Below are positions 19,277 to 23,451 of a stretch of DNA of 64,000 nt, one piece after another. The stretch lies in sequence record OR896830.1; one strand, given 5' to 3'. A program made the translations under genes and the position numbers. How positions within the stretch are numbered: the first letter of the stretch is position 1; each line of letters starts with the position of its first letter. Origin of the DNA: Escherichia phage LinBro. Under the pieces are notes generated by a model. The model saw nothing but the letters and a program-made list of their open reading frames with translations. It had not been told where the DNA came from and ran no database searches.

Positions 19277-20425
19277 ATGGCAGTAGGTGAAATTCAAATT
19301 AGTGCCTTGCCTCAAGCAGCCTTACCAATTGACCTTAGTGATATCTTCCATCTTAAACAGGGTATCGAGGATAAGAGATGTACTCTTGAGCAATTACTTG
19401 CTCCACACTCAAGCCTAAGAAATAACCCACATGGTGTTACTAAGACACAAATTGGTTTAGATAACGTTATTAATGCTCTCCAGTTAGTTGCTGAAAATAA
19501 CTTATCAGATATTGTTAATGTAGCTGAGGCAAGAGCAAATCTACAGATTATGTCTTCAGAAGAGGTTAATAATCTTATTCAACAGCATATTGATGATAAG
19601 AGCAACCCACACAATACTACTAAGGCACAGGTTGGGTTAAGCAATGTTCAGAACTGGGTGACATCTAACCTTTATAATGAGGATGCAGATAAGTATGCTA
19701 CAGCAAGAGCAGTAAATAACTTGTACAAGGCTGTTCAGGCTTCTTATCCAGTAGGTACTATCCATCTCTCTATGAATCCTGCAAACCCTTCTACATATTT
19801 AATTTGTGGAGGTACTTGGGAGTTAGTTTCAAAAGGAAGAGCACTTGTAGGTTATGATAGTGCTTCTAGGCCAGTTGGTTCAACGTTTGGTTCGCAGACT
19901 ACTGCACTGACAGTTAACAACATTCCTGCACATACTCACTCAGTATACGTCACTGGTGGTGGTCACACACACGGTGCAACGGCCTCTATCAGTGCTTTTG
20001 ACTACGGTACTAAAGGGACTACAACGTTTGACTATGGAACAAAGACTGTATCTACTTATGACTATGGTAACAGAACAACCAGTGCTGCTGGTTTAACACA
20101 AACAACATTCATTAATCGTGGTTATGCTGATGGTGGTTGGAGAGGTTTATCAGTTGAGGGGGCAAGCTATGACCCAAGAGCTACGCTGACAACAGCTAAC
20201 AACCACACTCACTCTGTAGCAATTGGTGCGCATAATCACACAGTGGGGATTGGTGCTCACAGCCATTCTGTTGCAATTGGTTCCCACAACCACTCAGCAA
20301 CAGTAACAGTAACCGGAGCAGGTGAGCATTCGCACTCTGGCACAACTGGCACAACTGGTTCTGGTCAAGCGTTTAGCGTTGAACAGCCATCCTTCGTATT
20401 GTATGTATGGCAGAGAACAGCTTAA
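19277..20425 (+). CDS. tail fibre protein with His-rich (HxH) C-terminal tip
   Basis: 382 aa; C-terminal ~150 aa contain repeated HTHS/HNHT/HSHS motifs and a terminal motif shared with the next gene. Confidence 0.6.
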   Translation: MAVGEIQISALPQAALPIDLSDIFHLKQGIEDKRCTLEQLLAPHSSLRNNPHGVTKTQIGLDNVINALQLVAENNLSDIVNVAEARANLQIMSSEEVNNLIQQHIDDKSNPHNTTKAQVGLSNVQNWVTSNLYNEDADKYATARAVNNLYKAVQASYPVGTIHLSMNPANPSTYLICGGTWELVSKGRALVGYDSASRPVGSTFGSQTTALTVNNIPAHTHSVYVTGGGHTHGATASISAFDYGTKGTTTFDYGTKTVSTYDYGNRTTSAAGLTQTTFINRGYADGGWRGLSVEGASYDPRATLTTANNHTHSVAIGAHNHTVGIGAHSHSVAIGSHNHSATVTVTGAGEHSHSGTTGTTGSGQAFSVEQPSFVLYVWQRTA

Positions 20426-20471: not shown

Positions 20472-22805
20472 ATGGCAGATTACAAGTTGAGTGAATTAAA
20501 CTCAATTGATACAATTCGTTCAGACGACCTCCTTCATGTCAGGGTTAAAAAGAGACCTGAAATGCTGGGTGATGAAGACCGTCGAATGACCTATCAAGAC
20601 TTCTTAGCGTCTTTTAAACTAGAAAGATTTGTTCAGATTGCTGGTAGCACTATGACGGGCGACTTAGGGATTGTTAAGTTACTTTATGGTGGTAAGGCAG
20701 TCTTTGACCCTACAGGTTCTTCTGAGATTACTATGGGGGATGTTTTAAAGACTTTTAAAATTAATGCAAATGGTCTTAAACTAACTATTGCAGATGCTTC
20801 AAGGTCTGCAACTGTTTATCATACTCTTAATAAGCCAAGCCCTAATGAACTTGGGATGAGAACTAATGCTGAGAATGATGCTAGATATGCTAGATTAGAA
20901 GTACTAAATACTTTTAAGTCTAGGCAGACAATTGTAGCAGATGGTCAAGCACTGTTGTTAAGAAGTGCAACTGATAGCCCTTCTCTCTATGTTAGAGGTC
21001 AAGACCCATCTGGAACTAATAAATGGTATGTTGGATTTAATACTTCAAATGTTCTTGGATTATCAAATGAAGCCTCTGGCACGACATTGACATTGGATTC
21101 AGCAGGTATTAATTCTAATAAGAATTTAAATATCACTGGTCAGGTTAAACCTTCAGACTGGTCTAACCTAGATGATAGATACTTTACCCAAACATTGGCT
21201 AATCAAAGATTTGCACAGTTGGCTGGTAATAACACTTTTAACGGCACTAATACATTCAACCAACTGAGTGTTTTCAAAAAAGATGGTGAAGCAATTAGGC
21301 TACAGAATGCCAATGCTGCACAACCATTGTACATTAAAGCAATTGATAGCACAGGTGTCAACAGATGGTACATTGGTAATAGTAACGAAGGTGATAACGT
21401 AGCTCTAGAAAACTACAAAACTAGTGGCAAGATTACTGTAGGGACAAGTGTTAATATCAATAAAACACTAACTGTAACTGGTCAAGTTCAACCTTCAGAT
21501 TGGACTAACATTGACTCTAGATATATTCCGGCAGCAACATTAAGTACAATTGCAAGAACTAATGCTAAGAATACTTTTTCTCAAGGTCAGATTATTAAGG
21601 CTGATGGAGAGGGTATTAGACTTCAGGGGGTAAATGATACTGGTGGTTTGTTCTTGCAAGGTTATACTTCTGATGGTGCTAAAAAGTGGTTTATGGGTAC
21701 TAATGCTTCAGGAAACTTTACTATCAGGGAGATGGTGTTAGGTACTGAACTGTCTCTTAGAGAGAACTATATCCAGTTTAATAAGAATGTAACAATCACT
21801 GGGCAGGTTCAACCATCAGACTGGACTAACCTAGATAAAAGGTACTATACCGGTTCAGCATCAAACGCCAGATACATGTATGCAGGAAAAACTGGTGAAG
21901 GTGATAATGATGCTGCTATTGCTTGGGATGCTAAGACAGGGCTGTATAATGTCAAGACTGGAGCTACATCATCAAATCTTTTACTTCAGTTATATCAGGG
22001 GTCTGAGTCATCTACACCGTCTGCGCAGCTAAGATTTAAATGGGCGAATGGTGGTATGTGGTATAGGACATCAAGAGATGGTAATGGCTTTGAGAAAAGT
22101 TGGGCTATGGTGTACACAACTGCACAGAAGCCAACCCCTTCAGATATTGGTGCATACACTAAAGCAGAAACTGACCAGAAGATTGCACAGGCAGTAAGTG
22201 ATTCAACAGACCTTAATAAAATCTACCCTGTTGGTATTGTAACGTGGTTTAACAGTAACGTTAACCCTAATACAGCACTGCCTGGTCTAACTTGGACGTA
22301 CCTTAACAATGGTGTAGGTAGAACAATCAGGATTGCAGCAGCTAACGGTTCAGATGTTGCTACAACTGGTGGTTCAGATTCTGTAACGTTATCTGTTGGT
22401 AACTTACCTTCACACACACACAGTTTTTCTGCTACTACTTCGTCTTTTGACTACGGAACAAAAAACACTAACACGACTGGTGCTCACACCCACTCTGTAA
22501 GTGGTTCTACTTCATCTGCTGGTAACCACAGCCACTCTATTTCGTGGATTGGTCAGAACTCACAGCACTATTCCGGTGGTGGTGGTGGTTACATTGGTAC
22601 AGGGCCGGGTTACACCGATGCTAACGGTGCTCACACCCACTCTGTAAGTGGTACTGCCGCTTCTGCTGGTAACCATGCTCACAGTGTTGGTATTGGTGCT
22701 CACAGTCATACAGTTAGTGGTAACACTGGTGGTACAGGTTCTGGTTCAGCATTTAGTGTTACTAACCAGTTCTATAAGTTAATGGCTTGGGTGAGGACTG
22801 CTTAA
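20472..22805 (+). CDS. long tail fibre protein with three internal tandem repeats and His-rich C-terminal tip
   Basis: 777 aa; three ~110 aa repeats each ending TGQV(K/Q)PSDW(S/T)N(L/I)D.RY; C-terminal HTHS/HSHS/HAHS motifs paralogous to the upstream fibre. Confidence 0.65.
21000..21850 (+). repeat. three tandem ~330-nt coding repeats inside long tail fibre gene
   Basis: Repeat units at approx 21008-21190, 21351-21530, 21671-21850 encode ..(K/R)W(Y/F)(V/I/M)G..(T/N)(G)QV.PSDW.N.D.RY. Confidence 0.55.
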
Positions 22806-22841: not shown

Positions 22842-22884
22842 TCTTTATAGGTATTCTCACCATCTTGGCTGATGAGGTGATTAA

Positions 22885-23079
22885 ATGCCTACAATCCTAG
22901 CAATTCTCCTAAAAAATCTAGGTAGTTTCTTCTGGAAACTCATTTTATCTCTTCTAAGTGAATACATGATTGAGAAAGTGTTCTTTAAGCTTGCAAGATA
23001 CCTTGCGGGTAAGACAGACACCCCTATTGATGATGAATTCGTAGATAACTTAGAAAAAGCTTTTAAGGGGGAGAAATAA
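22885..23079 (+). CDS. small membrane protein (holin-like candidate)
   Basis: 64 aa, N-terminal hydrophobic helix ILAILLKNLGSFFWKLILSLL, charged C-terminus. Confidence 0.3.
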   Translation: MPTILAILLKNLGSFFWKLILSLLSEYMIEKVFFKLARYLAGKTDTPIDDEFVDNLEKAFKGEK

Positions 23080-23451
23080 ATGAAGTGGATAGAGGAAGCT
23101 TTTAAAAATAATATTGGTGCAATTGTTGTTGGTATTTTTAGTGTTATTGGGATGTATACCACGATGCAAGTTTCAAGTGGTAAGCAAGAGGTGTCTGTCA
23201 CAACAAAATTACAGCAGCTAGATAATTATAGCAAATCTAATTACTCAGCTATTCGTGATTTACAGTCTGACATAAGACTTATTCAGTTAGGGATGGAGAA
23301 CCAGAAAGTTCAGTTAGAGAATGTTAAGGGTGAGAATGCAAAACTTACCAAAACTCTTGATAAATTCTCTGACAGTGTGAATAATCTGGCTCAATCAGTA
23401 TCAGCCCTCCAAGCTATTACTGAAAAGAACACAAAGAATACTGAAAAATAA
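23080..23451 (+). CDS. membrane-anchored coiled-coil protein (lysis-related candidate)
   Basis: 123 aa, N-terminal TM segment GAIVVGIFSVIGMY followed by coiled-coil heptads. Confidence 0.3.
   Translation: MKWIEEAFKNNIGAIVVGIFSVIGMYTTMQVSSGKQEVSVTTKLQQLDNYSKSNYSAIRDLQSDIRLIQLGMENQKVQLENVKGENAKLTKTLDKFSDSVNNLAQSVSALQAITEKNTKNTEK

Follow-up and report, generated by a model that had tools for sequence, protein, structure and literature searches.

The long tail fibre (LTF) of Escherichia phage LinBro contains three consecutive repeat units, R1 to R3, which with a probability of roughly 0.8 are successive modules of a trimeric fibre shaft that arose by ancient duplication and whose variable cores are swapped between phages at conserved linkers. 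The window analysed here is a 64,000-nucleotide stretch of this phage (OR896830.1). The repeats themselves and their constant number are already known from the Pfam family PF20744 and from two cryo-EM papers, on phage Bas63 (PMC12609058) and on phage Sf14 (PMC11821841). What is added is modest: cassette mosaicism at the nucleotide level, a swap between the R1 and R3 positions, and relatives with four or five units.

The identity of the gene is supported by its sequence and by its neighbours. The open reading frame (ORF) spans 2334 nucleotides and encodes a 777-aa product. From end to end it shares 99.5-99.6% nucleotide identity with genes annotated as tail fibre in Escherichia phages vB_Eco_Tribble and vB_EcoM_Alf5. 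Matches were found in 233 phage records, nearly all from Felixounavirus, and PHROG 4277 ('tail fiber protein') covers the full length of the product. On its 5' side are ORFs of 489, 285, 100 and 382 aa, in that order; on its 3' side are small ORFs, followed by minus-strand genes for thymidylate synthase and dihydrofolate reductase (thyA/frd). The published order in Bas63 is wedge 2 (489 aa), wedge 1 (285 aa), LTF platform, short tail fibre (STF, gp26) and LTF (gp27) (PMC12609058). As the window has the same order, the 777-aa ORF is the Felixounavirus LTF, preceded by the wedge, platform and STF genes and followed by the holin region and thymidylate synthase. This gene order recurs in phages tootiki, DE7 and BPS17L1. 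The product is a homologue of Bas63 gp27 and Sf14 gp53, and the reading of this ORF as a long tail fibre gene in the earlier note is therefore confirmed by identity to annotated genes, by PHROG 4277 and by the Bas63 gene order.

The repetition is clear in the protein. The three units, with borders set by a hidden Markov model (HMM) made from the units themselves, are mutually 37-40% identical (blastp, E about 1e-20 to 9e-27). Self-blastp of the whole protein returned the identity match only, and the repeats were compared by segment-against-segment blastp: aa 136-247 against 348-468 gave 39.7% identity (E 9e-27), aa 146-238 against 260-352 gave 38% (E 1e-20) and aa 260-351 against 367-458 gave 39% (E 2e-22). 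Pfam PF20744 (gp37_trimer) recognises three stretches with 171.9 bits (E 2.8e-51), above its gathering threshold of 21.7 bits. Segment blastp, unit HMM and Pfam thus bear out the three tandem repeats of ~110 aa that the earlier note had proposed, together with the internal periodicity that they imply in the protein, and the consensus W(Y/F)xG ... NKx(L/V)x(I/V)TGQV(K/Q)PSDW(S/T)N(L/I)DxRY is found in all three units, as claimed. The ranges first assigned to them (approximately 21008-21190, 21351-21530 and 21671-21850) fall on real repeats but cover just the C-terminal ~60 residues of each ~107-114-aa unit. The note's description of the units as tandem shaft repeats also holds.

Conservation alternates along the fibre (Table 1). 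Across 121 homologues, column conservation is 42-64% in the unit cores, 83-98% in the linkers, 95-100% in the N-terminus and collar, and ~75% in the head, where aa 681-725 are variable. In R1 a variable core (aa ~141-220, 46-61%) is followed by its conserved 3' linker, and R2 has a 6-aa insertion (AGNNTF) near its start. The N-terminal 134 residues, ~98% conserved, end in a 19-residue linker-like motif and show no significant likeness to the repeat unit in profile comparison. The literature counts five structural beta domains; just three of them are repeats by sequence (PF20744). Segment blastp and profile comparison found no fourth sequence-recognisable copy in aa 1-134 or aa 465-579. The idea that these two stretches are degenerate extra copies was rejected on the same lack of significant similarity (hhalign probability 0.4%); a related KP(S/T)PxxxG...(E/D)xD motif nevertheless closes each of them.

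Table 1. Features of the long tail fibre gene and the adjoining short tail fibre gene (positions in the window)
Feature	Residues	Position	Strand	Basis
Short tail fibre (STF) gene	382 aa	19277..20425	+	Direct repeat families D2-D6, Pfam, PHROG, Bas63 gp26
Long tail fibre (LTF) gene		20472..22805	+	ORF, nucleotide identity, PHROG 4277, gene order
N-terminal baseplate-binding region and first beta domain	aa 1-134	20472..20873	+	Conservation among homologues
Repeat unit R1	aa 135-243	20874..21200	+	HMM envelope, PF20744, core conservation
Conserved linker L1, cassette boundary	aa 221-252 (32 residues)	21132..21227	+	93-98% column conservation
Repeat unit R2	aa 244-357	21201..21542	+	Unit HMM, motif, conservation profile
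Conserved linker L2	aa 335-352 (18 residues)	21474..21527	+	Conservation profile, breakpoints
Repeat unit R3	aa 358-464	21543..21863	+	Unit HMM, motif, conservation profile
Conserved linker L3	aa 443-460 (18 residues)	21798..21851	+	Repeat family, conservation, breakpoints
Fifth shaft domain, Pfam gp37_C	aa 465-579	21864..22208	+	PF12604 E 8.9e-17; PDB 8ju3 E 6e-21
Collar, His-x-His needle and head (receptor-binding tip), T4 gp37 type		22209..22805	+	2xgf, Pfam, HxH

Counterparts of the unit outside this family are found in the fibres of other phages. A profile of 40 diverse units matches T7 gp17 residues 368-436 (E 4e-8) and, weakly, Mu S residues 354-442, linker motif QVxPxxxxNxDxRY included. 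The full-length AlphaFold monomer was too poor to use (pLDDT 51) and a one-unit model was taken instead; this single-chain prediction (pLDDT 83) consists of a five-strand beta meander, then short helical turns in the PSDWxNLDxRY segment. Foldseek aligns the unit model with T7 gp17 (4A0U/4A0T) at E 2.4e-4, probability 1.00, an rmsd of 1.9 Å over 66 columns and 30% identity. Judged by sequence profile and predicted fold, the unit is homologous to the T7 gp17 pyramid domain (gp17 residues ~371-447), its closest solved structure. Domains resembling this pyramid domain and Mu gp49 have also been described in Sf14 gp53 (PMC11821841). The T7 fibre shares the arrangement of a beta domain followed by a short connector; it differs in having one matching stretch in the chains searched, where the window LTF has three in tandem and, after them, further domains and a needle of T4 gp37 type.

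The remaining domains relate the fibre to Mu and T4. The fifth shaft domain (aa 470-571) is homologous to residues 326-426 of Mu S' (8JU3, E 6e-21). Mu S (5YVQ) differs from the window LTF in having one weakly matching stretch, and the Mu chains do not match the HxH needle region. According to the Sf14 authors, Mu fibres use a chaperone that lacks a homologue in Sf14, a relative from the Ounavirinae (PMC11821841). Homology to the T4 gp37 tip (PDB 2xgf, E 5e-18) covers the C-terminal collar, HxH needle and head, with further matches to Pfam Gp10_C and Phage_fiber. Six HxH motifs are present in the LTF (aa 648, 672, 686, 721, 735 and 744) and seven in the short fibre, the same counts as in Bas63 (PMC12609058). 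The Bas63 authors also liken their beads-on-a-string shaft to the T4 gp34 rod (5NXF/5NXH) (PMC12609058). Assignment of the unit to the shaft domains of T4 gp34 or gp37 was rejected: Foldseek E values for gp34 were 0.56-1.1, neither T4 protein matches PF20744 or the unit HMM, unlike the window LTF, and no Pfam Gp34 rod domain (PF21446 or PF21560) was found in the 777-aa protein. T4 gp37 (locus L037, 8543-11620) falls outside PF20744 'gp37_trimer' and matches Collar, Phage_fiber and, weakly, Gp34_trimer; the name of the family can mislead annotation.

Within the Ounavirinae the likeness extends to the whole fibre. Bas63 gp27 and Sf14 gp53 share with the window LTF the gene position, the N-terminal baseplate-binding region, the repeats (predicted beta domains in the window LTF) with conserved segments between them, the Mu-S-like domain, collar, six HxH motifs, head, constant repeat number and hypervariable repeats. 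Nothing essential differs, and the window phage belongs to the same genus. The Bas63 fibre is 630 Å long, lies along the sheath and is described as five beta-helix repeat domains with triple-helix-and-turn motifs between them; the 'triple alpha-helix and turn' is the published term for connectors of the TGQVxPSDWxNxDxRY type (PMC12609058). The same authors found the repeat number invariant among 18 species and repeats 2-5 unexpectedly variable (PMC12609058).

The STF gene next to the LTF gene has a collar and an HxH needle in common with it, and a Pfam search found no PF20744 units in its 382-aa product. The two genes are also alike in DNA at their collar and needle ends (19277-20425 versus 22395-22760), and the direct repeat families D2-D6 pair 20201-20380 with 22478-22760 at 61-86% identity; these stretches are a possible substrate for exchange between the STF and LTF genes. 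The motif NPHxxTKxQxGLxNV occurs twice in the STF, at 19424-19468 (aa 50-64) and 19604-19648 (aa 110-124). A 64-aa ORF (22885-23079), whose homologues in related contigs match PF26925 (Phage_PM2_Gpl), adjoins the 3' end of the LTF gene, and it is followed by a 123-aa ORF (23080-23451) annotated as a holin in related phages. A 106-aa ORF (22881-23201) that overlaps both on the opposite strand is probably spurious. The Tribble record (OX016465.1) places a feature called 'E. furg BREX site' inside its tail fibre gene.

The number of units is fixed among close relatives. A search of a 5.8-billion-protein index with the full-length protein gave 120 homologue clusters (67-99% identity), which together with the window protein make up the 121 full-length proteins compared; a further 29 IMG/VR loci were found with the conserved LTF N-terminus. 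Exactly three units are present in 121/121 proteins, 29/29 loci and 3/3 cultured phages (tootiki, DE7 and BPS17L1). The fibre of BPS17L1 is 840 aa long, with its extra length outside the units. Most length differences among three-unit fibres (775-851 aa) come from the fifth shaft domain, which is itself variable: proteins P0047, P0065 and P0090 (the last of 851 aa) carry unrelated sequences of different length there, and the slot is therefore also swappable. In two Felixounavirus genomes from IMG/VR (L006 and L024; UViG 2974574300_000001 and 2706796256_000001, ORF start 4501) the LTF frames stop at 453 and 541 aa, past the third unit, which could reflect frameshifts, sequencing errors or true truncations. 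The LTFs of EC6 and Si3 are flagged as probably incomplete by the Bas63 authors (PMC12609058).

Larger arrays do exist in distant, uncultivated lineages. When 1.84 billion representative proteins were searched exhaustively with the profile, the exceptions among the strongest matches were P0124 (1015 aa), with five units, and P0125, with four; Pfam agrees, reporting 5 and 4 stretches. None of the other matches among the 150 listed had more than three units by the 40-sequence unit HMM. Four candidate many-unit fibres with 6-8 'stretches' (P0145, P0243, P0250 and P0262) were rejected as weak partial matches, having at most three units by the same model. P0125 had been called at 901 aa, and the in-frame sequence MAEYNLSQLNTTTEVLPPDLLHIRVKKRGT upstream of the called start (locus L034, 5911-6000) matches the conserved N-terminus; the true start therefore lies 30 codons upstream and the protein has 931 aa. 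Both genes are on contigs of 77-87 kb, SRR22802239_169 and ERZ28599557 scaffold_93, with the gene order of the window and wedge proteins 65-72% identical to those of the window, the five-unit fibre being represented by a single metagenomic contig. Searches found no cultured phage close to these two relatives. The existence of four- and five-unit relatives indicates that fibre length has been changed by whole units, just between distant lineages. The length variation anticipated in the earlier note is accordingly absent within the genus, where 153/153 full-length Felixounavirus-like fibres have three units, and present between lineages. The fixed number in the genus would most simply reflect a length or docking constraint.

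At the DNA level the periodicity almost disappears. Tandem Repeats Finder reported no long-period array over the units, and whole units share 50-53% nucleotide identity with longest common exact runs of 9-11 nt. The sole DNA repeat family among them covers 82 nt towards the 3' end of each unit (21107-21188, 21449-21530 and 21770-21851; spacing 342 and 321 nt), 71-82% identical between copies; linker L3 and the corresponding part of L1 share 82% nucleotide identity. The units are protein repeats, not DNA repeats. The expectation that they would be recombination-prone does not hold in the sense of homologous recombination of copy against copy in one genome, for which identity at this level and identical runs of at most 11 nt are too low.

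Recombination is evident instead between phages. For example, protein P0005 is 100% identical to the window fibre in R1, 39% in R2, 97% in R3 and 33% in the head; P0007 is 40, 98 and 24% identical in R1, R2 and R3, and P0028 is 96, 45 and 42% identical. In nucleotides, tootiki and the window are 96-100% identical in the R2 core, ~40% in R1 and 40-59% in R3. Pairwise unit identities are bimodal, either 30-60% or 80-100%, and the 121 proteins show 54 arrangements, drawn from 9-12 types of cassette for each position when grouped at 70% identity. Nucleotide identity changes from at least 90% to at most 65%, or back, almost only at unit borders, a clustering that is partly to be expected, since variation is confined to the cores; changes between high and low identity cluster, for instance, at L1.

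The cassettes mostly keep their place, as units group by position in 360/363 cases. Nonetheless, R3 of P0038 is 85% identical to R1 of P0070 in protein and 92.5% in DNA over 308 nt, while its identity to R1 of its own fibre is 41% in protein; linkers L1 and L3 of these phages are 90% identical over 51 nt. In P0124 the extra units share 70-74% identity with Felixounavirus cassettes of the R1 type, whereas the flanks of this protein are ~50% identical to those of the window fibre. Inside cassette types dN/dS is 0.18-0.30 (from non-independent pairs), compared with 0.06-0.07 for the N-terminus and collar, so that the cores are under constraint, if a looser one than the conserved parts. What stands of the recombination foreseen in the earlier note is thus that phages exchange cores as cassettes, that the breakpoints fall in the linkers and that an R1-type cassette occurs at R3 in one phage. 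General statements of tail fibre diversity, and no prior description of cassette mosaicism, were found in the literature on Felixounavirus fibres; the accessible sections of the Bas63 and Sf14 papers describe no cassette-level recombination, R1/R3 position swaps or four- or five-unit relatives.

These observations suggest how the shaft is built and diversified. Each unit would consist of a predicted five-strand beta meander, then the conserved TGQVxPSDWxNxDxRY connector, and a stack of units, with the baseplate-binding N-terminus on one side and the Mu-S-like domain, collar, needle and head on the other, would give a fibre of fixed length. In this picture both the trimeric structure and the role of the units in setting fibre length are inferred. 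The duplication would be ancient and its copies diverged in DNA; being no longer alike, they would not recombine with one another inside one genome. The conserved linkers would instead recombine between different, co-infecting phages, with the variable cores serving as interchangeable cassettes, swapped mostly in register and occasionally between R1 and R3. Over long times, out-of-register exchange may move a cassette or change the number of units, and the array may have grown in this way to four or five units in distant lineages.

Three other readings of the array have to be weighed against this one. Tandem layout, conserved 3' ends (the 82-nt family, 71-82% identical) and the four- and five-unit fibres of distant relatives are what would be expected of an unstable array, in which frequent unequal recombination between copies in one genome changes copy number and fibre length. 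With copies only 50-53% identical, exact matches no longer than 9-11 nt, three units in every one of the 153 fibres and a number invariant in 18 species (PMC12609058), we consider this very improbable, and for close relatives it is largely refuted. Equally hard to credit is that the cores vary through substitution tolerance under relaxed constraint, with cassettes as products of long neutral divergence and no recombination. Tolerance to mutation is the first possibility named by the Bas63 authors (PMC12609058), and dN/dS in the cores is 3-4 times that of the N-terminus and collar. However, adjacent cores in one gene pair are 96-100% versus ~40% identical in nucleotides, pairwise identities are bimodal, 54 arrangements are built from ~10 types per position, and one cassette has moved from R1 to R3; such a pattern does not come from divergence alone.

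A different proposal concerns what the cores do, and we regard it as possible but rather unlikely. The variable cores would be putative recognition surfaces, either secondary sites along the shaft for LPS/O-antigen glycans or targets of host defence or immunity, and ancient alleles kept by frequency-dependent selection would be reshuffled via the linkers to change host range. Discrete, deeply diverged cassette types are indeed maintained in many arrangements, some common even to fibres with flanks only ~50% identical, and the within-type dN/dS of 0.18-0.30 indicates cores that are constrained and not drifting freely. Host recognition and defence escape are among the possibilities of the Bas63 authors (PMC12609058), and variants that increased on host challenge in a Felixounavirus LTF have been located at aa 497 and 534, within the variable shaft domain next to the units (PMC6669636). 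Against this, mean dN/dS is below 1 everywhere, and LPS contact in T7 is ascribed to the tip, not the pyramid domain (summarised in PMC11821841); structurally tolerant spacers hitch-hiking with tip exchanges would fit the data equally well. Taken together, the data argue against pure mutational drift and for the addition of recombination of old alleles, with which a neutral spacer and a recognition surface are both compatible.

Shaft modules exchanged at conserved linkers, as we favour here, have a counterpart in other phages. In the tail fibre adhesins of T-even phages, exchange of modules bounded by motifs was reportedly described by Tetart, Desplats and Krisch in 1998. In both cases short conserved motifs around variable segments are the recombination sites for swaps between phages; the exchanged segments of the T-even phages are in the receptor-binding adhesin (gp37/gp38), whereas those of the window LTF are shaft modules.

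The 'unexpected' variability of the shaft domains is explained at least partly by exchange of whole cassettes at the linkers, not by point mutation, and cassettes are able to change position in the array. The conserved linkers are natural splice points, and are therefore useful for engineering Felix O1-type fibres. If the cores do prove to be recognition surfaces, this would account for the high variability of beta-helix repeats 2-5, a question raised for Bas63 (PMC12609058), and reshuffling would extend to changes of position and, in other lineages, to growth to four or five modules. The cassette picture frames a direct test of the effect of shaft modules on host range.
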